Part shown: in pieces, positions 6,935 to 63,660 of the stretch
How positions within the stretch are numbered: position 1 is the stretch's first letter
Layout: each line of letters opens with the position of its first letter
Origin: Hypanus sabinus
Taxonomy: Eukaryota
Assembly: GCF_030144855.1 (NCBI RefSeq)
Contig: NC_082712.1
Span: forward strand, 13,330,001 to 13,394,000
Direction of reading: 5' to 3'
Length of the DNA stretch: 64,000 nucleotides
Program-made: the position numbers and the translations under genes
The notes under the pieces: generated by a model
Database searches by the model: none
Seen by the model: only the letters and a program-made list of their open reading frames with translations
What the model was told of the DNA's origin: nothing

Positions 6935-8590
6935 AAAGAGTGTAGTGACATTTGCATTTTTCCAGTCCTCTGGCACCATGCCAGTCCAATCATTGATTTG
7001 AAAGATCCTTATAAATTCCTCCAGAATCTCGACTGTTACCACTTTCAGAACCCTAGGGTGCAGTTCATCTGGTCCAGGTGACTAATATACCCTTAGGTCT
7101 TTCAGCTTTTTGAGCAAGTTCTCCCTTGTAATAGTAACTGCACCCACTTCTTTTCCCTCACACCCTTCAACATCTGGAACACTGTGAGTGTCTTTCACAG
7201 TGAAGCCTGATGATTCATCAATCATCTCCTTAGCCCTCGTTATTATTTCTCCAGCCTCATTTTCTAGCGGTCCTAAATCTACTCTCATCTCTCTTTTAAT
7301 TTTTACATATTTGAAAAAGCTTTCACTATCCACCTTGATATTGTTTGCTTGCCTGCTTTCACATTTCATCTTTTCCCTCCTAACTATTCTTTCAGTTGAT
7401 CTTGGTAGGGTTTTAAAAGCTTCCCCATCTTCTGCCTTCCCACACATTTTTGCTTTGTTGTATGTCCTCTCTTTTGCTTTTATATTAGCTTTGACTTCCC
7501 TTGTCAGCCATGTTTGTACTATTTCTCCATTTGAGTATTTCTTCATTTTTGGAATACATCTATCCTGCTCCTTCCTCATTTTTCCAGGAACTCCCACCAT
7601 TGCGGCTCTGCTGTCATTCCTGCTAGCAAATTCTTTAACTTTACTTTGGCCCACTCCTCTCTCATACCACTGTAATTTACTTTACTCCACTGAAAGACTG
7701 CTACATCAGACTTTACTTTCTCCCTATCAAATGTCAAGTTCAACTTAATGATATTGTAATTACTGTCTCCGAGGAGTTCTTTTACCTTAAACGCCCTTAT
7801 CACCTCCAGTTCATTACAAAACATCAAGTTCAGTATAACTGATCCCCTATTAGGCTCAATGACAAACTGATCTAAAAAGCCATCTCTTAGGTGTTCAACG
7901 AATTCACTTTCTTGAGATCCATGACCAACCTGATTTTCCCAATCGACCTGCAAGTTGAAATCTCCCATGATAAACATAACATTACTGTTTTGACGTACTC
8001 TTTCTATTTCCCATTGTAATCTGTTGTCCACCTCCAAGCTCCTGTTGGGAAACTTGTATGTAAGTACCATCAGGGTCCTTTTACCCTTGCAGTTTCTTAA
8101 CTCAACCCACAAGGATTCAAATTCTTCTGATCTGATTTCACATCTTTCTACTGATTTGATGCCATTCTTTACCAGCAGAGCCACACCACCCCCTCTGCCT
8201 ACCTTCCTATCTGTCTGATACAATGTGTAGTCTTGGTCCAGATTTAATCCAGAAATCCAGATTTCTAACCTAGCTCTCTAAATTTTCTTTTCAGGACCTC
8301 CTCTTCACATTTTGTTCCTATGCCATTGGTACCAATATGTACCAAGACATCTGGCTGCTCTCCCTCCCCCTCCAAAATGTTGCGGACGCAATCTAAGATG
8401 TCCCTGACCCTGGCACCTGGGAGACAACGTACAATTCAGGCATCCCGTTCACATCCACAGAATGTTCTACCTGTTCACCTGACCAATGAGTCCCCTATCA
8501 CTACTGCTGTCCTCTTCTTCCTCTTTCCTGTGCAACCCGTCTCTTTTGAACAGGTCATACCTCCCCCAGAAGAGATCCCAATGATCCAAG
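6935..8590 (-). mobile_element. CR1 LINE, internally deleted (ORF1 fragment, endonuclease, ORF2 middle)
   Basis: ORF 7576-8223 (GRGGGVALLVK, LWVELRN, IMGDFN) and ORF 7082-7654 (FFKYVKIKR, KLKDLR); ORF1 esterase piece (VVIGDSLVR) near 8500. Confidence 0.85.
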
Positions 8591-10254: not shown

Positions 10255-10647
10255 AAGATCGCCTGTCCTTCCCTCAACTCCCAATGAGAGTGTCTCTGTG
10301 ATGACTGGAACCGAGGGAGCTTCGGCCACGTTACCCTGTGTGTACACACGGCCTCGGCAGAGCCTCACCGCACACACGGTGATGTGGATGAGGAAGGATC
10401 CCTACCAATACATCGTCACCTTCAGGCACTGAGGAAATGGATCGTGGGCAGCAGAAAACGACTGACTCAGTACAAGCTCGTCAGGGACCCAGAGGGAGGA
10501 AACATCTTGATCAGGATAAAGCAGCTGAGTGAGGGAGACAGTCACAGCCACCTGCGTCTGGCTGAATTCGGGAAAGGGAAGCATGATTACTTATCCTACG
10601 TCAAACCCCCATTTAACCATGTGATCCAGAGTGAGATCCGACTGCAG
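10255..10647 (+). pseudogene. Pseudogenised Ig V-set exon (Siglec-15/MAG-like family)
   Basis: It reads EGASATLPCVYTRP...VMW, then TGA at 10430-10432 and a frameshift, then YKLVRDPEGGNILIRIKQLSEGDSHSHLRLAEF...EIRLQV. The F-strand Y-x-C appears as H-L-R. There is an acag acceptor at 10253-54 and CAG|GTAAGA at 10647/8. Confidence 0.7.
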
Positions 10648-11169
10648 GTAAGAGACCATAGACACGTTCTGGAGGGGATGGGGTGGGTTTTGGGGGCAGC
10701 AAGTGAACCCTGTTACCATTATCCTTTCTCTAATCAACCCTCACTCCTGGGTTTATCTGTCTGTCCCCGAGTGAGATCTGACTGTAGATCAGACCCAGAA
10801 AAGAACCCGTCGCCACATTCAAGTTCAAGTTTAATTGTCAATCAGTGACACGTGCAGCCAACAAAACACAACAGCGTTCCTCCAGGGCCTTGCCTGAGCC
10901 TGGGAGGAATGAGTGGAGTTCTAATGGAGGATCAGGAAGCTTCCCAGAGAAGTTGCACACTCAGCGTTTCAGGAAGAGCTTCTTCCTTTCTGCCGTCAGA
11001 TTTCTGAATGGACAATCAGAAAAGTGAGGACCAGCTCACTTTGTTTCCTTTCTTCCCTCTTCTTGTGATATTTATTTAATTTAAAATTATACATGGTGGC
11101 ATATATTTCTTTTGAAATTTACAGTTTTTAATTAATATGTATTGCAATGTATAACGGGGTGTCAGGGTG

Positions 11170-11924: not shown

Positions 11925-12945
11925 TTGTACAGGTCACACCTGCCCCAAAAGAGGTCCCAATGATCCTGAACTCTGAATCACTGCCCCCTGCTCCAATCCC
12001 TCAGCCACGCATTTATCCTCCACCTCACTCTATTCCTGTACTCGGTGTCACATGGCACAGGCAGTAATCCCGAGATGTGGTCCTGCTTCTCAACTTCCTT
12101 CCTAACTCTCTGTTGTCTGCTTTCAGGACCTCCTCCCTTTTCCTACCAGTGTCGTTGGTACCAATATGTACTACGACCTCTGGCTGTTCACCGTCCCACT
12201 TCAGGATATCGTGGACGTGACCAGAAACATCCTGGACCCTGGCACCATCGAGGCAAACTACCATCCGCGTTTCTTTCCTGCATCCACAGAATCGCCTATC
12301 TGACCCCCTAACTATGGAGTCCCCTATCACTGCTGCCATCCTCTTCCTTTCCCTACCCTTCTGAGCCACAGGGCCAGACTCTGTGCCAGAGACGTGACCA
12401 CGGTTGCTTCCCCCTGTAGGCTGTTCCTCCCAACAGTCCTCAAACAGGAGTACTTACTGTTAAGGGGGACAGCCACAAGGGTACTGTCTGGCATCTGACT
12501 CGTCCTTCCCTCTCCTGACTGTTACCCATTTACCTAACTCCCGAGGCCCCGGTGTAACTACCTGCCTATAGCTCCTCTCTATCACCTCCTTGTTCTCCCT
12601 GACCATGCGAAGTTCATTGAGCTGCAGATCCAGTTCCCTAACATGGTTCCTAAGAAGCTGCAGCTCGACACACCAGGTGCAGATGTGGCCGTCCAAGAGG
12701 CTGGGAGTCATCTGACACCGAGCACAGACATTCTTCCTGTCTGTATTCTACACAGATAACCTACCTGGCCTCGACCTGTTACCGCCGAAGCCCTGTTGAG
12801 CCAAAGCCTTCCTCGTCTGTTTCCCTCTACTATAGTGCCTGCTCTGTAAAGCTGTCTCCTTTTAAACTCTTCCCATGGTTCTCACTGGCTGACGTCCACG
12901 CGCTTGCGCAGTCATGCCCCGATCAAACCGCTGAAGAAATTGATT
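11925..12945 (-). mobile_element. CR1 5' end (5' UTR plus ORF1)
   Basis: ORF 12460-12711 (CTWCVELQLL, zinc-ribbon/coiled region) and ORF 12025-12369 (AVIGDSIVRG, VVVHIGTND). Confidence 0.8.
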
Positions 12946-12949
12946 TAAT

Positions 12950-13245
12950 GCTGGATTTGTTCTGATGGGAGATTGGAGGGACTGGGTGTGTTCTGAGTGG
13001 AGATCGCAGACACTATTTTTTCTGAGGAAAGATTGGTCGGACTGGGTCTGTTCTGATGGGAGATTAGAGAGTCTGGGTTTATTCTGAGGTGAGATCAGAG
13101 ATAATTTCTGTTTTTTATGGTAGATTAGAGAGATTGGATTTGTTCTGAGTGGAGATTAGAGAGACTGGCTTTGTTCTGAGGGGAGATTCAAGAGTCTGGC
13201 TTTGTTCTGATGAGTGGTTGGACAGACTGGGCTTGTCCTGAGGAA
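12950..13245 (-). repeat. Degenerate 30/31-bp minisatellite (same family as 17731-20076)
   Basis: About 9 diverged units of gactgggtttgttctgaggggagatt. Confidence 0.7.
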
Positions 13246-13389: not shown

Positions 13390-14250
13390 GTGAAGTGACA
13401 TTGGAGAATCAGGGTCTACTCTGCGGACTGTTACACAAAGCACCACTTGTAATGATGAGCAACTTCACAACTGAAAAGAATGTGGGTTCTCCAACGAACT
13501 ACGTATGTGCACCCTACTGGAATCCCTGACCCTCCATGAATAGTGAATGAAGAAGAAAGCGATTATCTGGGAAATGAGTCCACACTGGCTAGGTGTTCCT
13601 CATGGTCTCGATCTCCACATGTCCTCCTTATCCCTGATGGTTGTTCTCTGACTGCGGGAGAGTTATGGCTCCTACGTATTTGGAGCTCCTGAATTTTATA
13701 CTGTTCCTCATCAATTGAACTGGTGGATCTCCATCCCTTTGACTCAAGGTCACCTGACCTACCTGGGTCACCTTCTCATTGCTCATTATACAGGGCAACA
13801 ACCCACATTGTTTCCTGGTCCTGCCCACCCCAGACTTGTGTATTTGAGTCTTTCAACTCTGACTGGTCCAAACCCATTAAACTTGGTGACCCAGACAGAG
13901 TCTAACGAGAATACAGATTGATTCTTTGGTAGGTCTGGCATTTTACATAATAAGTAGCTCCTCCTCCGAGAATGGGCTCAGGTTTAGCAGGTCCTTCGGG
14001 TCCTGAAGTTTCTCATGTCCACTTTCAGTTGCTCTGATTAGATTATCCAAGAGCATGAATATAGTTCAGAATCCACAAAATGGGGGTGTGAGGGAACAAA
14101 GACAACTGGTCTGTCTCCTTCCCCTGAACTTGATTCATCAAATCCACTAATTGTAGACTGTAGATTCTTCTGGCCAACATCTTCCTCCTCTTCATCCAAA
14201 GATATTTATCCTGAGATCATTATCCTCCTCTCATTCAGATGACTGCCCAT
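13390..14250 (-). pseudogene. ERV post-env region, possible accessory ORF(s)
   Basis: It lies directly 3' of env on the proviral strand, matches no repeat I recognise, and has long open stretches (DEEEEDVG...; KMPDLPKNQSVFSLDSVWVTKFNGFGP...GCCP). Confidence 0.35.
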
Positions 14251-14369
14251 AGGACTGCCTTGTAGGTGTGTAACACTTACATTCTATAAATAATTTTAAC
14301 ATTTACTAACTAACTTCACCCACTTTATACTGACAATCGTCTCTGCTTTTTCATGAAAACCTTATCCTC

Positions 14370-16290
14370 CATTTTTTTTCCATTATTGCGTCTTCTCAGT
14401 TGATATACCTCAGGGGGCATAAAATTAGTACTGCAGCGGTATGTGATACTATTCTTACCCATGGATGTATTTGAACATTTGTCCTCCAATTCCAAAACTT
14501 ACTCCAAAAGCCTGGTGACTCAATATTTCATTTGCTTCTGCAGCGTGTGTTTTAATTACTTTAGTGTGTTTAGTCCATCGATGGATTATCTCCGTTTTCT
14601 CTGCCACAACACGTGTCCAGTCTGCAGTCAAGTGAGGAAGTGGTGGCAACTCAGTAACAACACAGTCCCACAGATATTGATCTGTATCTGTGCATCGAGT
14701 CTTGAAGTTCTCCCCCTGGCTGAGGCAAAGTTCATCCTCCAATGGCCAGGTCTAAAGTCACGTTCCCTCTCATGATATTGTGACTTTCCAAAAGGGCATT
14801 GTTTCCATCCCTTGGTATAACTTGTGGGCCCTGTTGCTATGTAATACGTCTGTCCCACCAATGCATATTGTAAGAAAGCCTAGTTATTCACAGGCAAAAT
14901 GGACAATGAATAATTTTCACAAGTACAGGTTTTAAGCTTCTGCTTTGTCATTCCTTCTGGACAAGATCAGTTGTCTCCCTCTTGATGGCATCTTGATAAA
15001 TCGCTCCCTTTCCCAGTACCATTCATAACAGTAGCATATATCAGTGGGTTACTTAAGGATATCTATGTATTCTGATGATACTTTCCAACATTGTGAACAT
15101 CTTTTCAAAATGTAGGTTGAATTATTTCCATATGGGGAAAATATGGAATACCACTCTGACATAAAAAAAACCTTCCTTTACCATCATCACGGGTATCGAG
15201 TTCTCTGTTGGTTACTGTAAGGCTTCTGATATGATACAATGGCACCCTTTCTCCAACCCATTCTTTCAGATGCTCATCTGAGACCCAGTTTGCTCCTTGA
15301 TGTGCATCAAGTTGCAACAGATTAGTGCCAGTCATGGTGAGCAACCAACTAGCATACGGAGCACGGATCTCAGTTTTCTGCATTTCCTTAGACGTGAGGT
15401 CTATGTGGTCAGTAATCGGATTTGTTGTATCATGAAGGGGCTACAGAAATTTACCAGTAACAGGGTTACCCGGATGCATCTCAACCAATCTGATTAGTTT
15501 GTACCCAATCTCTGTAATTCTCTCCAGTAATATCCCTTATTTTCTGCTGGAGGGACTGTGTCTGGTTTTCTAATTCTGCTACATCGAGGCTGTTGACTGT
15601 TGCTGCCCCTGATGCATAACCTACTCCCACTAATTCCAGTAGTCCTCTTTTCCTACTGACTTGACAGGCCTAACCTCGCTCTGCTTCGTTGTCTCTCACA
15701 AGGGTGAGCAAATAATTGTTTTGTTGTAGGTGAGCACTATTCAGGCACCATTATTTCAGTTAAATTAAAAATTATCTAGGAGTGCTCGTACCCTGGTGCC
15801 AAAGTGTCAAATTCCCTTGTATCTCCTAACACTAAGCCTGTCCCATTTGTGTTACGCTGGGTCTCACTACATTTAGGCTCTGGTATAGTTTCCATCACCT
15901 GTGGGTATGGAGTAGTGATTTTTCTAATAGTTTTGAAAACCTGGAAAGGGCCTGGCCACTGACAAAAACTGTAATATTTAAGGATAATATCCGCTCTTAC
16001 TTCCAGTTTAAATCTTAAATTATTTTGTGCATATTTTCTACTTGTTTTTCTAGACAAACCAGTCCAGACTCCCAGTTGTCTTTGGATTCAAGGCATCCAT
16101 TTTTCCTCACCCAATTTTGTTTTTAGATAGGAGAGACAAACACTGGCATATCTTCCTTTCCGTTTGATTTTTTTGACAAAATTCCCCTGTTTCTCAGGAT
16201 GTGGAAAATAAAAATCACCTCCTTGAGTGGGCAGGTTCCCATCTTCTTGGAACAGTTGCTCCATCCTCAAGTCCCCCAAATCAGGACTAC
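14370..16290 (-). pseudogene. env: ERV env, class I fusion protein resembling pneumo/paramyxovirus F (lokiretrovirus-like), with stops and frameshifts
   Basis: A hydrophobic LMYMVVLIWG leader; SRKR|GLLELVGVGYASGAATVNSLDVAELENQTQSLQQK at 15654-15541; Cys-rich GSDLSRCHQEGDN*SCP...TCTC; membrane-proximal HPWVRIVSHTAAVLIL. Confidence 0.75.
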
Positions 16291-16329
16291 CATGTACATC
16301 AATTGTTATGTCCTGATGGTGATAACATT

Positions 16330-16790
16330 CCTGTTTCTCCCCCACCAATTTCAGCTGGTTGATATGGTACCACCCACTTTTATCGTGAGAAGTCAGCACT
16401 GTGCACTAAAGGGTTTGCTTTGTCTATAATTTCATAGGGCCCTGCGAACCTTGGATTTAACAATGAGTGGGTTGGTGTTTCTAATCATCACTCATTGTCC
16501 TGGGTTTAATTCCATGGGACTGACTTTTGAGTCAAAGCCGAATTTACTCTGTTGCTTCTTCTTTCCTATTTGGTAGGCTGCCACATAACTGGCCTCTTTC
16601 ACTGCCTCTACTAATTGCTGTACCACTTTTCTGAAACAAACCCATTGATATCAAGTTCTGACAAATCTAATCCTAACAACTCCTCCTTTCATATCCCTTC
16701 CGGTCATGAATTTATACGGGATATAACCAGTTGAAGACACCACTGTATTCCTTATTGTCATCAAGGTACAAGGAAAATCTAATTCTAACT
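16330..16790 (-). pseudogene. pol: ERV integrase C-terminal part (HHCC and DDE core deleted)
   Basis: LMTIRNTVVSSTGYIPYKFMTGRDM (end of IN core), GPYEIIDK (GPY/F motif) and GWYHINQLK. Confidence 0.8.
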
Positions 16791-16914
16791 GCTCTAATCC
16801 TCTAATGTCCTTTCTGCTCAACCCTTGCGGAGTCCTCTGTTAAATCCATAACAATCTGTTTTCCCTTCTGCCTTCCAGACTCCCAACTTGTAGCTGCCAT
16901 TTCTGCCCAATTCA

Positions 16915-17090
16915 CAGTTGCACCTTGCTTCGCCAATTTATCAGCTTTTCTATTTCCCTCAGGAGATGATTTAGAGTGAGACTTCACCTTTATGACTCCA
17001 TATTATTTTCACTTTGCAACTCCAAATATATATTGTAATAAATCAGCAGATGGGAGGGGCCTGCATTAGCTGAAACAAACCCCCTGTTGT
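16915..17090 (-). pseudogene. pol: ERV RNase H C-terminus
   Basis: GFVSAN...PSADLLQYIF...VIKVKSHSKSSPEGNRKADKLAKQGA matches the retroviral RNase H K.H...GN..AD..AK motif. Confidence 0.8.
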
Positions 17091-17460: not shown

Positions 17461-17730
17461 CACCATAGACAGCACCCTGTCTGGGTGCATCTCGGCTCGA
17501 TGTGGTCCATCTCTGTCTGTGACACAAGAAGCTATTTATTTTGATGAATGTGTGACAGATAAAGCCAACCTGTAACTTTATCTTGCACAAGTCACTGATA
17601 GTTCTGTGTTGTTTTTCCTACCGCAATGAAAGAGGAGATATTTCCAGCTACTTCCTCACTTACCACATCCCTAAAAGAAAAGTTCAGTCTTTTCAACTGT
17701 GAAATTATTTGGCATTATTTTTATCAACAC

Positions 17731-20076
17731 TCAGACCAAACACAGTCTGTCCGATCTCCCCTCAGACCAAACCCAGTCTGTCCGATCTCCCTCAGACCAA
17801 ACCCAGTCTGTCCAATCTCCCCTCAGATCAAACCCAGTCTGTCCGATCTCCCCTCAGACCAAACCCAGTCTGTCCGATCTCCCTCAGACCAAACCCAGTC
17901 TGTCCAATCTCCCCTCAGACCAAACCCAGTCTGTCCGATCTCCCCTCAGACCAAACCCAGTCTGTCCGATCTCCCCTCAGACCAAACCCAGTCTGACTGA
18001 TCTCCCCTCAGACCAAACCCAGTCTGTCCGATCTCCCTCAAACCAAACCCAATCTGTCTGATCTCCCCTCAGACCAAACCCAGTCTGTCCGATCTCCCTC
18101 AGACCAAACCCAGTCTGTCCGATCTCCCTCAGACCAAACCCAGTCTGTCCAATCTCCCCTCAGATCAAACCCAGTCTGTCCGATCTCCCCTCAGACCAAA
18201 CCCAGTCTGTCCGATCTCCCTCAGACCAAACCCAGTCTGTCCGATCTCCCCTCAGACCAAACCCAGTCTGTCCGATCTCCCCTCAGACCAAACCCAGTCT
18301 GTCCGATCTCCCTCAAACCAAACCCAATCTGTCTGATCTCCCCTCAGACCAAACCCAGTCTGTCCGATCTCCCTCAGACCAAACCCAGTCTGTCCGATCT
18401 CCCTCAGACCAAACCCAGTCTGTCCAATCTCCCCTCAGATCAAACCCAGTCTGTCCGATCTCCCCTCAGACCAAACCCAGTCTGTCCGATCTCCCTCAGA
18501 CCAAACCCAGTCTGTCCGATCTCCCCTCAGACCAAACCCAGTCTGTCCGATCTCCCCTCAGACCAAACCCAGTCTGTCCAATCTCCCCTCAGACCAAACC
18601 CAGTCTGTCCGATCTCACCTCAGATCAAACCCAGTCTGTCCGATCTCCCCTCAGACCAAACCCAGTCTGTCCGATCTCCTCAGACCAAACCCAATCTGTC
18701 CAATCTCCCCTCAGACCAAACCCAGTCTGTCCGATCTCCCCTCAGACCAAACCCAGTCTGTCCGATCTCCCCTCAGACCAAACCCAGTCTGACTGATCTC
18801 CCCTCAGACCAAACCCAGTCTGTCCGATCTCCCTCAAACCAAACCCAATCTGTCTGATCTCCCCTCAGACCAAACCCAGTCTGTCCGATCTCCCTCAGAC
18901 CAAACCCAGTCTGTCCGATCTCCCTCAGACCAAACCCAGTCTGTCCAATCTCCCCTCAGATCAAACCCAGTCTGTCCGATCTCCCCTCAGACCAAACCCA
19001 GTCTGTCCGATCTCCCTCAGACCAAACCCAGTCTGTCCGATCTCCCCTCAGACCAAACCCAGTCTGTCCGATCTCCCCTCAGACCAAACCCAGTCTGTCC
19101 AATCTCCCCTCAGACCAAACCCAGTCTGTCCGATCTCCCCTCAGACCAAACCCAGTCTGTCCGATCTCCCCTCAGACCAAACACAGTCTGACTGATCTCC
19201 CCTCAGACCAAACCCAGTCTGTCCGATCTCCCTCAAACCAAACCCAATCTGTAGGATCTCCCCTCAGACCAAACCCAGTTTGTCCGATCTCCCCTCAGAC
19301 CAAACCCAGTCTGTCCGATCTCCCCTCAGACCAAACCCAGTCTGTCCGATCTCCCCTCAGACCAAACCCAGTCTGTCCGATCTCCCCTCAGACCAAACCC
19401 AGTCTGTCCGATCTCCCCTCAGACCAAACCCAGTCTGTCTGATCTCCCCTCAGACCAAACACAGTCTGACTGATCTCCCCTCAGACCAAACCCAGTCTGT
19501 CCGATCTCCCTCAAACCAAACCCAATCTGTAGGATCTCCCCTCAGACCAAACCCAGTTTGTCCGATCTCCCCTCAGACCAAACCCAGTCTGTCCGATCTC
19601 CCCTCAGACCAAACCCAGTCTGTCCGATCTCCCCTCAGACCAAACACAGTCTGACTGATCTCCCCTCAGACCAAACCCAGTCTGTCCGATCTCCCTCAAA
19701 CCAAACCCAATCTGTAGGATCTCCCCTCAGACCAAACCCAGTTTGTCCGATCTCCCCTCAGACCAAACCCAGTCTGTCCGATCTCCCCTCAGACCAAACC
19801 CAGTCTGTCCGATCTCCCCTCAGACCAAACCCAGTCTGTCCGATCTCCCCTCAGACCAAACCCAGTCTGTCTGATCTCCTCTCAGATCAAACCCAGTCTG
19901 TTCGATCTCCCTCAGACCAAACCCAGTCTGTCCGATCTTCACTCAGAATAAACCCAGCCTTTGTGATCTCTCCACAGTCTCTCATCAGTACAAACTCACT
20001 CTCTGAAAGCACCTCAGTCACTCCAGAAAACAAAGCCAGTCTCTGTCTGATCTCTCCTCAGAGCAAACCCAGTCCC
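17731..20076 (+). repeat. 30/31-bp minisatellite, about 70 regular units plus degenerate 3' units
   Basis: Unit TCAGACCAAACCCAGTCTGTCCGATCTCCC(C), head-to-tail with no spacers. Confidence 0.97.
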
Positions 20077-28564: not shown

Positions 28565-28915
28565 GGACTGGGTTTGCTCTGAGGTGAGATCAGAGGGAGA
28601 CTGGCTTTGTTTTCTGGAGTGACTGAGGTGTGATCGGAGAGTTAGGTTGTACTGATGAGAGACTGTGGAGAGATCACAGAGACTGGGTTTGTTCTGAATG
28701 AAGATCGGACAGACTGGGTTTGGTCTGAGGAGAGATCGGACAGACTGTGTTTGGTCTGAGGGGAGATCAGACAGACTGGGTTTGGTCTGAGGGAGATCGG
28801 ACAGATAGGGTTTGGTCTGAGGGGAGATCAGACGGACTGGGTTTGGTCTGAGGGAGATCGGACAGACTGGGGTTGGTCTGAGGGAGATCGGACAGACTGG
28901 GTTTGGTCTGAGGGG
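28565..28915 (-). repeat. 30/31-bp minisatellite, short copy (about 7 regular units plus degenerate units)
   Basis: Units of gactgggtttggtctgagg(g)gagatcggaca. Confidence 0.9.
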
Positions 28916-29334
28916 AGATAATGATAATGACCAATTCGTTTCACAGCTGAAAAGACTGAACTTGCCTTTTGGGGATGTGGTAAATGAGGAAGTAGCTGGA
29001 AATATCTCCTCTTTTATAGTGGTAGGAAGAACAACACAGAACTATCAGTGACTTGGGCAGGATTATGCTACAGATTCGCTTTAACTGTCAGATATTCATC
29101 GAAATAAAGAGTTTCTTGTGTCACAGACAGAGATATACCACATCGAGCCGAGATGCACCCAGACAGGGTGCTGTCTATGGTGTTTGATAACTCTGGCCTT
29201 GTACTCACTGCAGTTTAGAAGAACGTTGGTGGGGTGCAGGGAATCTCATTGAAACCTATGCAATACTGAGAGGCTTGGATAGATTTGACATGGAGAGGGT
29301 GTTTCTGATTGTGGGGAATTCTTGATGATTGAGC

Positions 29335-37087: not shown

Positions 37088-40000
37088 ACAACCATATAAC
37101 CATATAACAATTACAGCATGGAAACAGGCCATCTCAGCCTGTCTAGTCCTTGCTGAATGTTACTCTCACCTTGTCCCACTGACCTGCACTCAGCCCATAA
37201 CCCTCCATTCCTTTCCTGTTCATTTACCTGTCCCATTGTACTTTAAATGACAATATTGAACCTGCCTCTACCTCTTCTACTGGAAGCTCACACAGCTACC
37301 CACTCAATGAATAAAGAAGTTCCTCCTCGTGTTACCCCTAAACGTTTGCCCACTAACTCTCAGCTCATGTGTTTTTGTTTGAATCTCCCCTACTCTCAAT
37401 GGAAAAAGCCTATCCACGTCAACTCTATCTATCCCTCTCGTAATTTTAAATACCTCTGTCAAGACCCCCCTCAATCTTCTACGCTCCAAAGAATAAAGAC
37501 CTAACTTGTTCAACCTTTCTCCATATCTTAGGTGCTGAAACCCAGGCAACATTCTAGTAAATCTTCTTTGTACTTTCTCTATTTTGTTGACATCTTTCCT
37601 ATAATTTGGTGACCAGAACTGTACATAGTACTCCAAATTTGGCCTTACCAATGCCTTGTACAATTTTAACATTACATCCCAACTCCTATACTCAATGCTC
37701 TGATTTATAAAGGCCAGCATATCAAAAGCTTTCTTCACCACCCTATCCACATGAGATTCCACCTTCAGGGAACTATGCACCATTATTCCTGGATCACTCT
37801 ATTCTACTGCATTCTTCAATGCCCTACCATTTACCATGTATGTCCTATTTTGACCTGTCCTACAAAAATGTAGAACCTCACACTTATCAGCATTAAACAC
37901 CATCTGCCATCTTTCAGCCCTCTCTTCTAATTAGCCTAAATCTATCTGCAAGCTTTGAAAACCTACTTCATTATCCACAACACCACCTATCTTAGTATCA
38001 TCTGCATACTTACTAATCCAATTTACCACCCCATCATCCAGATCATTAATGTAGATGACAAACAACATTGGACCCTGTACAGATCCCTGAGACACACCAC
38101 TAGTCCCCGGCCTCCAACGTGACAAACAGTTATCCACCACTACTCTCTGGCATCTCCCATCCAGCCACTGTTGAATCCATTTTACTACTTCAATATTAAT
38201 ACCTACTGATTGAACCTTCCTAACTAACTTTCCATGTGGAATCTTGTCAAAGGCCTTACTGAAGTCCATGTAGACAACATCCACTGCTTTACCCTCGTCA
38301 ACTTTCTTAGTAACCTCTTCAAAAAATTCAATAAGATTTGTCAAACATGACCTTCCACGCACAAATCCATGTTGACTGTTCCTAATCAGACCCTGTCTAT
38401 CCAGAAAATTATATATACCATCTCTAAAAATATTTTCCGTTAATTTACCCACCACTGACATCAAACTTACAGGCCTATAATTGCTAGGTTTACTCTTAGA
38501 ATCCTTTTGAAACAATGGAACAACATGAGCAATACACCATTCCTCCAGCGCCAAACCCATTTCTAAAGACATTTGAAATATTCCTGTCAGAGCCACTGCT
38601 ATTTCTACACGAACCTCCCTGAAGGTCCTAGGGAAACATCCTGTCAGGATCTGGAGATTTATCCAATTTTATATTCCTTAAAAACACCAGTACTTCCTCC
38701 TCTTTAATCATCATTGTTTCCATAACTCCCCTACTTGTTTCCCTTACCTTACACAATTCAATATCCTTCTCCTTAGTGAATACCGATGAAAAGAAATTGT
38801 TCAATTTCGCACACTAGCTGTCCACTGATTCTCTAAGGGACCAATTTTATCCCTCACTATCCTTTTGCTATTAATATAAGTGTAGAAACTCTTTGGATTT
38901 ATTTTCACCTTATTGTCAAAGCAACCTCGTACCTTCTTTTAGCTTTTCTAATTTGTTTCTTCAGATTCTTTTTACATTCTTTATATTCCTCAAGCACCTC
39001 ATTTACTCCATGCTGCCTATATTTATTGTAGATATCTCTCTTTTTCCAAACAAAGTTTTCAATATCCCTTGAAAACCATGGCTCTCTCAAACTTTTAACC
39101 TAACAAGAACATAAAGATTCTGTACCCTCAGAATTTCACCTTAAATAACCTCCATTTCTCTATTACATCCTTCCCATAAAAAATTGTCCCGACCCACTCT
39201 TTCTAAATCCTTTTGCATCTCCTCAAAGTTAGCCTTTCTCTAATCAAAAATCTCAACCCTGGGTCCAGTCCTAACCTTCTCCATAATTATATTGAAACTA
39301 ATGGCATTGTGATCACTGGACCTGAAGTGCTTCCCAACACGTACCTCCGTCACCTGACCTATCTCATTCCCGAACAGGAGATCCAACACTGCCCCTTCTC
39401 TAGTTGGTACTGCTAGGACTAAACTGTCCTGCACACATTTTACAAACTCCAAACCATCCAGCCCTTTTACAGAATGGGCTTCCCAGTCTATGTGTGGAAA
39501 ATCAAAAGCTCCCACAATCACAACCTCATGCTTACTATAAATATCTGCTATCTCCATACAAATTTGCTCCTCCAATTCTTGCTCCCCATTAGGTGGTCTA
39601 TAATACACCCCTATGAGTGTTACTACACCTTTCCATTCCTCAATTCCACCCAAATAGTCTCCCGAGACAAGCCCTCTAATCCATCCTGCCAGAGCACTGC
39701 TGTAATATTTTCTCTGACATGCAATGCAACACCTCCCCCTCTTGTCCCTCCGATTCTATCACACCTGAAGCATGAAATCCAGGAATATTTAGTTGCCAAT
39801 CACACTCCTACTGCAACCATGTTTCACTAATATGTACAACATCATATTTCCAGGTATCAATCCATGCTCTAAGCTCATCCAACTTTCTTACAATGCTCCT
39901 AGCATTAAAATAAATACATTTAAGAAATTGTCCACCTCCTCCTCTCTGTTTATCTCTTAAAGTACAAAGAACTTTACTGTCTCCTTTTTCTTGCTCTCCC

Positions 40001-60180: not shown

Positions 60181-60987
60181 TTAATTCATATGAAAGTGTC
60201 GAATGAATGGTCCCCAAGTTTCTTCAAATTTAATTGATGAATCAAAAATAGTACTTCTAATTTTCTCTAAACTTAAACAAGAAATAGTTTGAGAGAACCA
60301 CTGAAATGTGGTAGGAGGATTTATTTCTTTCCAATTTTGTAATATAGATCTCCTGGCCATTAATGTTACAAAGGCAATCATTCGTCTAATTGAAGGGGAG
60401 AATCGACTATCATCTTCATTTGGTATACCAAAAATTGCAGTGATAAAATGAGGTTGTAAATCAATATTCCAAATTGAGGAAATGGTAGCAAATATGTCCT
60501 TCCAATAATTATGTAAAGTAGGACATGACCAAAACATGTGGGTCAATGAAGCCACATCTAAATGACATCTGTCACATTGAGGGTTAACATGAGAATAAAA
60601 CCGAGCAAGCTTATCTTTAGACATATGAGCTCTATGTACAACCTTAAATTGTATTAAAGCATGTTTAGCACATATAGAAGAAGAATTAACCATTTGTAAA
60701 ATTTTTTCCCATTTTTCCGTTGAAATATTGTATTGAAGTTCTTTTTCCCATTCCTGTTTAATTCTACCCGATACCTCTGGTTGTATTTTCATAATCATAT
60801 TATAAATAAGAGCCACTAATCTCTTCTGACAGGGATTTAAAGTAAAAATCATATCTGAAAAATCTATCAAAGCTGAATTAGGAAAGGATGGTAAAACTTT
60901 ATGCAAAAAGTTTCTAATTTGTAAATATCTAAAAAAATTAGATTTAGGTAATTTAAATTTGTTAGAAAGTTGATCAAAAGACATCAA
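60181..60987 (-). CDS. L1 ORF2 C-terminal domain (separated by about two frameshifts near 61000-61150)
   Basis: CDRC...HMFWSC zinc-knuckle motif and WGPF end. Confidence 0.88.
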   Translation of the reverse strand: MMSFDQLSNKFKLPKSNFFRYLQIRNFLHKVLPSFPNSALIDFSDMIFTLNPCQKRLVALIYNMIMKIQPEVSGRIKQEWEKELQYNISTEKWEKILQMVNSSSICAKHALIQFKVVHRAHMSKDKLARFYSHVNPQCDRCHLDVASLTHMFWSCPTLHNYWKDIFATISSIWNIDLQPHFITAIFGIPNEDDSRFSPSIRRMIAFVTLMARRSILQNWKEINPPTTFQWFSQTISCLSLEKIRSTIFDSSIKFEETWGPFIRHFHMN

Positions 60988-61111
60988 ACTACCTTCAGAA
61001 AAAAGATCACGAAAACATATTATACCTTTCCTTTTCCATATGCTAAAAGCTTGATCTATTAAAGAAGGTTTAAAGAAAAAATTAAGATAGGGCTATCAAG
61101 AACGAAGTTTT

Positions 61112-63013
61112 TTAGAGTAAAAAATTTACGAAATTGAAACCAAATTCGTATGTATGTTTGACAATAGGGTTAGATATCTGTTTATTAAGTTTAACTAAAT
61201 CAACAGGGAGAGAAGAACCAAGAACAGAAAATAGAGAATATCCTTGTGTATCATTACATTCTAAATTTACCCACTGTGGGCACAATGGTAAATCTAAATC
61301 TAATTTCCAGTATAATAAATTCCGAATATTATTCGCCCAATAGTAAAATCTAAAATTGGGTAAAGCTAAACCACCATCTTTTTTAGATTTCTGTAACTGT
61401 CTTTTACTTAATCTGGGGTTTTTATTTTGCCACACAAATGAGGAAATTTTTGAATCAATGCTATCAAAAAAAGACTTAGGAATAAAAATTGGTAAGGCTT
61501 GAAATAAATATAAAAATTTCGGTAAAATCATCATTTTAACAGCATTGATCCGACCAAACAATGATAAGGATAAAGGAGACCATCTAGTAGTAAGTTGTTG
61601 AATTTGATGAAGCATAGGTAAAAAATTCAATCTGAATAAATCTTTATATTTCTTGGTAATTTTTATACCTAAATAAATAAAATTGTCAGTAACAATTTTA
61701 AATGGTATCCTGTCATTCAGTAAAGTTTGTGCATTTAAAGGGAAGAGTTCACTCTTATCCAAATTTAATTTGTAACCAGAAAAACTACCAAATTGAACCA
61801 ACAAGGATAGAATAGCGGGAATAGAATTATCAGGATCAGAAATATATAACAACAAGTCATCAGCATAGAGCGATAACTTGTATAATTTCTCATTACGGGT
61901 AATACCAAAAATATTAGGGGATTCACGAATAGCAATGGCTAAAGGTTCTAATGCAATATTAAATAATAAAGGACTTAAGGGACAACCTTGTCTCGTACCA
62001 CGAGATAATTGAAAAAAAGAGGATCTATAATTATTCGTAAGGACAGAAGCAACAGGTTTATAATATATTAATTTAATCCATGATATAAAATTAGAACTAA
62101 AGTTAAAATGTTTCAAGGCATTAAATAAGTATATCCATTCAACTCTATCAAAAGCTTTTTCAGCATCTAATGAAATAACACATTCTGGGGTTGTGGGTGA
62201 GGAAGTGTAAATTATATTGATCAATTTTCTAACATTAAAAAAGGAGTATCGGTTCCTAATGAAACCAGTTTGATCTCCTGAAATAATCTGTGATAGTACC
62301 TTTTCTAACCTAACAGCTAAAATTTTTGTAAGAATCTTAGAGTCTACATTTAGTAACGATATAGGGCGATAAGATGCACATAAAGTAGGATCTTTATCTT
62401 TTTTAAGAATTAAAGAAATAGTAGCTTCATAAAAAGACTGGGGTAGTCTCTTCTTAATAAATGCATCATTAAAGATTTCACATAACCAAGGGGAAAGCAA
62501 AGAAGAAAAAGTTTTAAAAAATTCTATAATATAACCATCGGGGCCAGGAGCTTTCCCTGAATTCATCGATGAAATAGCTTCTCCTACCTCCGCCATAGAA
62601 ATAGGAGCATCAAATAAACTTCGATCTTCATCTGTCAGTTTGGGAATATTCAAATTGTTAAAAAAATTATCCATCATAGACATATCACCATCAAATTCTG
62701 ATTGATATAAAGATTTATAAAAATCTTGGAAAGTATTATTAATTTCTTTATGATCAGTAGTCAGATTACCGTCTTGTTTACAAATTTTAATAATTTGTCG
62801 CTTAGTCGAAATAGCTTTTAATTGATTAGCTAACAATTTACCAGTTCGATCACTATGAATATAAAATTGAGCCCTGGTCTTAATTAATTGATTCTCAATT
62901 GAAGAAGATAACAGTAAGCTATGTTCCATTTGCAGCTCAACTCTCTTCTTATAAAGTTCCTTGGTAGGAGTAACGGAATAAATCTTATCAATTTCTTTAA
63001 TTTTATCCACCAA
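61112..63013 (-). CDS. L1 ORF2 reverse transcriptase domain (633 aa open; part of frameshifted ORF2)
   Basis: KAPGPDG, YRPISLLNVDSK, DQTGF, SLDAEKAFD, GTRQGCPLSPLLF, YADD, YLGI. Confidence 0.93.
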   Translation of the reverse strand: MVDKIKEIDKIYSVTPTKELYKKRVELQMEHSLLLSSSIENQLIKTRAQFYIHSDRTGKLLANQLKAISTKRQIIKICKQDGNLTTDHKEINNTFQDFYKSLYQSEFDGDMSMMDNFFNNLNIPKLTDEDRSLFDAPISMAEVGEAISSMNSGKAPGPDGYIIEFFKTFSSLLSPWLCEIFNDAFIKKRLPQSFYEATISLILKKDKDPTLCASYRPISLLNVDSKILTKILAVRLEKVLSQIISGDQTGFIRNRYSFFNVRKLINIIYTSSPTTPECVISLDAEKAFDRVEWIYLFNALKHFNFSSNFISWIKLIYYKPVASVLTNNYRSSFFQLSRGTRQGCPLSPLLFNIALEPLAIAIRESPNIFGITRNEKLYKLSLYADDLLLYISDPDNSIPAILSLLVQFGSFSGYKLNLDKSELFPLNAQTLLNDRIPFKIVTDNFIYLGIKITKKYKDLFRLNFLPMLHQIQQLTTRWSPLSLSLFGRINAVKMMILPKFLYLFQALPIFIPKSFFDSIDSKISSFVWQNKNPRLSKRQLQKSKKDGGLALPNFRFYYWANNIRNLLYWKLDLDLPLCPQWVNLECNDTQGYSLFSVLGSSLPVDLVKLNKQISNPIVKHTYEFGFNFVNFLL

Positions 63014-63142
63014 TAAAGCTATATCTAAATATCTTTGTTTTCTTTTCCCAGCAGAATATGAGATAATTTGTCCATGAATAAAAGCCTTAAAAGAGTCCCA
63101 AAGTATTCCTCTGTCAATCTCTTCGGTATAGTTTGTTGAAAA

Positions 63143-63660
63143 AGAGAGATTACCTCAGGGCTCTTGAACTCAATCCCACAGCTGACGAATGCCAGTACAC
63201 CAGACACCTTCTTAACACCACTGTCAACCTGTGCAGCAGCTTTGAGTGTCCTATGGACAGAGTCCCCAAGATCCAGCTCATCCTCCACACTGCCACCAGT
63301 CTTACCATTCATATATTCTGTATTCAAATTTGACCTACCAGAATGAATCACTTCACACTTATCTGGGTTGAACTCCATCTGTTCTACACACCCTCCACTC
63401 TGTGTGTAATGAACCTGCCTCTGACCTCTGACATCCCCCCAATACTTTCCAGGAAAAGTCTCTGGCTGTCTGCTCGATTATGCCTCTTATCATCTTGTTC
63501 ACCTCTATCAAGTCACCTCTCATCTTTCTTCACTCCCAAGAGAAATTCTCCAGCTCGCTCAACCTTTCCTCATTAAACATCCTCTCTGGTCCAGGCAGCA
63601 TCCTGGTAGATCTCCTCTACATCCTCACGAAAGCTTCCTCATCCTTCCTGTAATGAGGTG
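63143..63660 (-). mobile_element. CR1 3' fragment (target of the L1; remainder at about 59720-59810)
   Basis: MEFNPDKCEVIH, LKAAAQVDS, GIEFKS. Confidence 0.75.

Follow-up and report, generated by a model that had tools for sequence, protein, structure and literature searches.

A decayed snakehead-retrovirus-like provirus with an envelope of predicted F-type fold in the stingray Hypanus sabinus, and an open, probably captured relative of its env gene

Background

Envelope (Env) proteins resembling the fusion (F) proteins have been described in print for three kinds of retroelement, namely lokiretroviruses, foamy viruses and the errantiviruses of invertebrates (10.1101/2023.10.26.564294). The lokiretrovirus Env is reported to resemble the F family PF00523 (PMC7947760, Wang and Han 2020). 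Paramyxovirus and pneumovirus F and the foamy Env are treated as class Ib fusogens in PMC11468914, which places the Env of orthoretroviruses in class Ia. Endogenous retroviruses (ERVs) similar to the snakehead retrovirus (SnRV) are already known from cartilaginous fish (PMC4422223, PMC6001957), and lineage I CmiERV of the elephant shark is a class III relative (PMC4422223). A 2026 survey of 40 chondrichthyan genomes for env genes required CKS17 together with CX5-7C (PMC12813294).

The present analysis concerns an env remnant in the genome of the stingray Hypanus sabinus. We put at roughly 85% the probability that it belongs to the inactive 3' end of an old class III (SnRV-like) provirus, whose Env is predicted to have had the F fold and to have fused membranes after furin cleavage.

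Methods

The window is the whole stretch of DNA analysed, 64,000 nucleotides of the forward strand of NC_082712.1 (assembly GCF_030144855.1, positions 13,330,001 to 13,394,000), and positions are counted from its first letter. Copies of the window element were sought by DNA search of the H. sabinus genome, in which 40 of 738 candidates were scored, and Env relatives by a protein search of the same species (150 of 588 candidates scored). The reverse transcriptase (RT), which the window copy lacks, was taken from fuller copies of the family. The IMG/VR record L078 (10,688 nt) was taken as SnRV on the basis of its RT sequence and its length, which equals the published SnRV length (PMC12193657). 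An AlphaFold model of the open relative of the window env was built from a 37-row alignment (mean pLDDT 61, pTM 0.44, residues 7-202 mostly below 50). Statements about the publications cited concern the parts of each that are drawn on here.

Results and discussion

Anatomy and decay of the window element

The element lies on the minus strand at about 17086-13465 and consists of a pol remnant, env, a polypurine tract and a 3' LTR. An isolated piece of the RNase H region (16833..17086, minus strand) matches the dispersed copies L021, L025, L027 and L013 at 76-79% by blastn; no remaining pol, gag or 5' LTR was found adjoining it. The C-terminal part of the integrase follows with the pol tail in broken form (16088..16781, minus strand; GPY motif at 16442, pol stop at about 16088), and the same tail occurs in the pol frames of copies L054 and L061. 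The preliminary description had assigned the whole of 14370..16290 to env; about the first 200 bases of that range, 16290-16088, are the integrase tail and fall outside the gene.

The remnant of env itself, which encoded a predicted F-type (class Ib) fusogen, occupies 14325..15968 (minus strand). It was delimited by tblastn with P0004, the open relative on contig C28 described below, which it matches in six pieces over residues 220-708 with 41-57% identity, 8 stops and 5 frame changes (E 5.6e-86). Such a value over six pieces with an open natural relative means that the match is not due to chance. In comparison with the dispersed copies, some 580 bp are absent at about 15968, taking with them the env start, a signal-peptide-like stretch and the N-terminal domain; the junction (15965..15970, minus strand) is marked by split blastn matches in L013, L021, L023, L025 and L027.

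Downstream of the junction, all on the minus strand, an F2-like piece (15704..15871, 45% identical to P0004 residues 220-275) carries two Cys residues at conserved places, 15871 and 15736, and not the single one noted earlier. The basic cleavage site, the fusion peptide and the first heptad repeat follow at 15484..15657. Here the preliminary description was correct: SRKR at 15657, the fusion-peptide-like GLLELVG at 15645 and the heptad-like AELENQ at 15579 share one frame. A frame change sits directly before the basic site of the window copy, and the P4 Arg is absent; this residue is present in 4 of the 7 other readable copies, including the open C28 gene. The F1 core, with helical bundle, beta sheet and Cys-rich domains, lies at 14717..15449 (41-44% to P0004 361-605), and the corresponding part of the open relative's model aligns to F proteins. 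A second frame begins at 15440, has 4 stops in 252 codons, and contains GSDLSRC (15008), a stop, SCP (14966) and CTC, the Cys-rich stretch spanning 15008-14920. Thus, the Cys-rich reading frame reported earlier is present, but env as a whole is not a single frame. The second heptad repeat, the membrane-proximal region and the start of the transmembrane helix occupy 14420..14691 (45-57% to P0004 618-708). A polypurine tract (14180..14193) of identical layout to that of copy L061 leads into the 3' LTR (13465..14179), which starts with TG at 14179 and whose end is set by blastn only. Its main aligned pieces differ from the LTRs of dispersed copies by K2P 0.19-0.24.

The reported absence of the gamma-type Env signatures CKS-17 and CX6CC was confirmed by motif search in all three minus-strand frames of the window env, and both are lacking also in P0004. 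Structure prediction of the window env piece with X at the stops gave an unusable model (pLDDT 49). With its stops, frame changes and lost start the window copy cannot make a fusogen; it is an inert fossil and produces no Env protein. The locus is thus the decayed and deleted env of an old SnRV-like provirus, a class III status and a state of decay that the preliminary description had missed.

Copies of the family and their surroundings

Among the 40 scored of 738 candidates, 12 full copies at 96-100% identity were recorded, the window included, 11 of them on contig C25 and one on C2488. The array copies are mostly about 100 kb apart, all carry the deletion, and their longest frames do not exceed 177 aa, which indicates that an already dead fragment was copied along with its surroundings. 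The window fragment would have multiplied passively within a duplication array of roughly 100-kb units on C25. Dispersed copies in the same scored set are 77-84% identical over longer pieces, and the window env differs from dispersed copies of its own subfamily by K2P 0.18-0.21.

The fuller copies have paired TG...CA LTRs of about 830 nt that are 93% alike and a primer site in which 16 of 18 bases agree with tRNA-Asn. Their Gag has a long, by inspection coiled-coil-like, N-terminus and one CCHC knuckle (zf-CCHC E 1.3e-8), an in-frame TGA follows gag in four of the five copies with a readable junction, and Pol is ordered PR-RT-tether-RNaseH-IN, with a tether and a second RNase H. A younger subfamily (L061:641-9530 and L060) has paired LTRs at K2P 0.05-0.08 and genes that are broken or deleted.

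Other features of the region were also recorded. In the array of about 100-kb units at about 11.2-13.5 Mb of C25, a V-set Ig exon (Pfam E 3.7e-10, L066:4389-5063) is repeated many times; window positions 10262-10887 match such an exon at 82%, and the ORF at 10288-10845 has no Pfam match. Tandem arrays of 30-31-nt repeats occur at 17700-20000, 28640-28920 and 12940-13240 of the window, and frames of LINE-type reverse transcriptase/endonuclease at 60181-63477, 37931-38668 and 7576-8277, all on the minus strand.

Retroviral affiliation

The best viral match of the ray RT is L078 (E 4e-69), with 106 of 206 residues identical (51%). In a 28-row RT tree, which included neither Loki nor labelled foamy RT, the ray RTs group with amphibian and coelacanth 'NYNRIN-like' Pols (97/96), and the enclosing clade with SnRV and ERV-L-like rows has support of 95/97. 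The comparison with SnRV, clade Huo and the class III ERVs (PMC6001957, PMC4422223) extends to other features, since the ray family has in common with SnRV, besides the RT, an in-frame stop between gag and pol, a Gag coiled coil with one knuckle, and the tether with a second RNase H. It differs in its stop after gag (UGA in the ray family, UAG in SnRV), in its tRNA-Asn primer site, unlike that of SnRV, and in its Env, which is about 730 aa long against 1134 aa in SnRV and very distant from it (4 bits).

Two other retroviral origins were weighed against the class III reading. A lokiretrovirus new to cartilaginous fish was the first lead, given the dual RNase H, the coiled-coil Gag N-terminus and the NYNRIN-like nearest proteins, and the profile of shark, ray and frog Env does find the Loki-type Env P0044 (69 bits against 8.4 for the best shuffle; hhalign 96.6). 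The lead was dropped on the RT evidence, that is, the tree without Loki RT, in which the ray RT falls with SnRV and the ERV-L-like rows, and a hand count on the alignment of PMC7947760, which gave about 100 of 192 residues identical to SnRV (about 52%) and about 64 of 192 to Loki-Str (about 33%). In that alignment the ray RT lacks the Loki stretches and carries those of SnRV, and in the part of the same paper drawn on here none of three chondrichthyan genomes was positive. A lokiretroviral origin is thus improbable. A foamy-like ERV, for which the F fold would simply be the known fold of foamy Env, appears slightly less credible still. Foamy RTs are the best PDB sequence matches of the ray RT (141 bits, against 106 for MLV and 79 for Ty3), and foamy Env is among the top fold matches; SnRV RT was, however, not among the PDB matches listed, so that the foamy-first ranking is no test of SnRV. 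The ray Gag carries a zinc knuckle, a feature absent from spumaviruses (PMC2717909), gag and pol are in one frame, and the extra Env domain is N-terminal, whereas foamy Env has its insert between the subunits (PMC11468914). The class III assignment is therefore preferred for the window provirus.

Relatives and fold of the envelope

In a library of 1.84 billion proteins 36 Env relatives were found; ten were looked up, of which eight come from five shark genera and one from a frog, the remaining one being P0044. P0044 was the sole match to PF00523 (E 4.7e-6) among 35 relatives scanned, and by eye it matches the published Loki Env. The open ray Env finds the Loki-type Env by phmmer (E 1.4e-5). 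The profile score of P0044 given above was obtained with 25 relatives without P0044 itself, and the same profile gives SnRV Env 4 bits (best shuffle of SnRV Env 0.4). The hhalign probability for SnRV Env, 92.6, comes from a different alignment from that of P0044, and the SnRV Env alignment covers the cleavage site, the fusion peptide and the Cys-rich part. By sequence comparison, lokiretrovirus Env is a much nearer relative of the ray Env family than SnRV Env is, and the profile scores indicate that a class III RT is paired with an Env nearer to that of Loki. The mismatch could have arisen by an Env swap or by fast divergence of SnRV Env. In the Env tree P0044 and SnRV Env sit on long, weakly placed branches, and the window Env clusters with that of the open C28 gene (95/93). 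With the lokiretrovirus Env (PMC7947760) the ray Env has in common the signal peptide, an RXKR-type site, fusion peptide, coiled coil and transmembrane helix; it differs in the RT of another lineage that accompanies it and in an extra N-terminal domain of about 180 aa.

The inference of an F-like class I fusogen on a retroelement, made in the preliminary description, is supported by the model of the open relative. By Foldseek the model matches the F proteins of a henipavirus (Langya), RSV and hPIV3 (E 3e-10 to 9e-9, TM-scores 0.3-0.5). In VIA, with 48,161 chains, each of the 12 best rows is an F protein or a foamy Env (Z 7.3-10.4, residues ~215-596). Baculovirus F, glycoproteins of lispi- and chuviruses, and the Env of WEHV1, WDSV and feline foamy virus are further matches in BFVD. 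The scores are moderate and come from a predicted model, yet the three libraries give a consistent picture, and the Env family is predicted to fold like the class Ib fusogens of paramyxoviruses, pneumoviruses and foamy viruses (PMC11468914), the likeness being a predicted F core at residues ~215-596. A class III retrovirus with a Ib fold departs, at the level of prediction only, from the class Ia placement of orthoretrovirus Env in that work. The pneumovirus flavour suggested earlier gained no support: paramyxo- and pneumovirus F matches are interleaved within about 2 Z units, with foamy matches tied with them, and the model does not favour a pneumovirus-type over a paramyxovirus-type F.

Sequence profiles, the other comparison proposed in the preliminary description, gave no PF00523 match for the window pieces or the open relative (GP41 at a non-significant E 0.27), and phmmer of the open Env against PDB gave 0 matches. 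A profile match to an hPIV3-type F0 (E 0.0011) depended on the Loki-type row and was rejected, as it was lost without it; the PDB profile search without that row, with a smaller F1-core alignment, gave no F match. At the sequence level the link of the ray Env to F thus appears only through the Loki bridge. ESM Atlas searches gave only scores under the bar, none of which identified the N-terminal domain. A recent acquisition of the gene from a pneumovirus or paramyxovirus, which the look of the fusion peptide and the top fold matches might suggest, is hardly credible in view of the 8-15% identity in structural alignments, the lack of a sequence match to F without the Loki bridge, and the occurrence of relatives in five shark genera and a frog.

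Several observations touch on the wider distribution of such envelopes. SnRV Env (L078:6131-9532) has no significant Pfam family and is likely F-type too. Two epsilonretroviruses, WEHV1 and WDSV, have predicted Env proteins that match the model at E 7.6e-9 and 7.3e-7, so that an F-type Env may be widespread among retroviruses of fish. Chordate clusters of 874 aa resemble the open relative's model in ESM Atlas, under the bar; zebra finch Ovex1 ORF3 also has 874 aa (PMC2717909), and its identity with these clusters is a guess. Two predicted proteins, P0023 (ankyrin/ion-channel) and P0039 (F-box), contain short Env-like pieces and are probably gene-model artefacts over ERV fragments.

The mode of action of the ancestral Env can be proposed from what is described for class Ib fusogens (PMC11468914). 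After a signal peptide, a variable N-terminal attachment domain would probably have bound the receptor; this domain differs between the window subfamily and the C28 protein, which are alignable only from residue ~204. The F2-like piece would have been tied to F1 by a disulfide, and furin cleavage at R-x-K/R-R would have released the fusion peptide. The first heptad repeat would then extend around the core sheet and the second pack back against it into a six-helix bundle, by which the membranes would be merged, one transmembrane helix anchoring the refolded bundle.

An open relative on contig C28

A search for an intact or co-opted copy, as proposed in the preliminary description, led to LOC132401028 on C28 (XP_059838750.1), a two-exon gene for 745 aa that stands beside a decayed pol. 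Its long exon lies at C28:118004210-118006423 on the minus strand (L043:3211-5433), with an open frame of 741 codons in the protein search and of 733 codons in the two-exon gene, and an AG acceptor just before it. The short first exon (L044:876) ends in GT about 6.4 kb upstream, some 1.7 kb beyond a 5' LTR-like remnant and inside another old repeat, and the intron contains the pol remnant. The protein has a hydrophobic N-terminus, the basic site, a fusion peptide, nine sequons and one transmembrane helix. In Hemitrygon akajei the protein, likewise of 745 aa, differs at 29 positions (96% identical), the first exon is the same and the R-x-R-R site is intact; two-exon RefSeq models exist in both species. 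As in known captured env genes (syncytins, percomORF and Sebastes env, PMC12813294; chicken Ovex1 ORF3, PMC2717909), the env is open, spliced, kept across species and placed beside a decayed provirus. The genes of PMC12813294 were required to carry CKS17 and CX5-7C, whereas the C28 gene is without CKS17 and CX6CC; among the 26 H. sabinus entries in Data S1 of that paper, none is at the C28 place.

Sequencing runs from 11 organisms, the source species included, hold at least a fifth of the C28 env words. In the four runs compared, the listed contigs over env are mostly free of gaps and those over the pol remnant have indels; the exceptions over env (X14 record 2, X17 record 10 and X19 record 19) are much more diverged or run on past the acceptor. 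One run, RNA by guess only, has a depth of 25-30 in the exon against about 4 in the intron, and its contig leaves the sequence at the acceptor; contigs of two runs of unstated kind likewise end there.

Taken together, the C28 env is likely a captured host gene with a putative function: in a related subfamily one locus would have kept its env open while pol and the LTRs decayed. An unlikely, though not negligible, alternative is a provirus that is recent or has by luck so far escaped damage to its env frame. Six of the seven C28 paralogues (117.66-118.40 Mb) are broken, and pN/pS of the open copy against the paralogues alone is 0.55-1.18, not clearly below 1 and by itself no demonstration of selection; its private changes are 4 synonymous and 9 non-synonymous (ratio 0.64). 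Against mere luck, however, pol at the same locus is heavily decayed, with at least five stops and one frame change within about 1 kb; among 60 scored candidates, the nearest relatives outside the array have disrupted frames and reach no more than 77% identity; a second genus retains the frame in full length; and the position of the first exon, beyond the LTR-like remnant and in another old repeat, argues in the same direction. In a neutral simulation the frame stayed open in 26 of 2000 runs at 0.05 changes per site and in 0 of 2000 at 0.10. The LTR-like pair at the locus differs by K2P 0.28 over 318 sites and may represent two separate insertions; its absolute dating with the shark rate in PMC4422223 gave an implausible age of about 630 My and was abandoned.

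A fusogenic role of the C28 env in the host is a tentative suggestion, less probable than not, the main alternative being receptor blocking, a role known for captured env genes. It is equally speculative that stingrays captured an F-type (class Ib) retroviral Env that now works as a fusogen of the host, comparable to a 'syncytin' of non-gamma type in a live-bearing cartilaginous fish, and that its source, a class III lineage with a Loki-related Env, would link Loki, foamy and paramyxovirus F and imply an F fold for the ancestral envelope of retroviruses.

Conclusion

Our search of the open-access literature turned up no description of SnRV-like ERVs with an F-type Env, and none of rays with a captured env of this type. 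The value of the present findings lies in the Env family and the open stingray gene, not in the window copy. The whole class of F-type Env escapes surveys in which CKS-17 and CX6CC serve as filters. A class III ERV with a Loki-related Env and a foamy-like predicted fold makes the evolutionary scenarios testable by a tree of RT versus Env, and the open, conserved stingray gene is an immediate candidate for either a captured fusogen or a restriction factor that blocks receptors.
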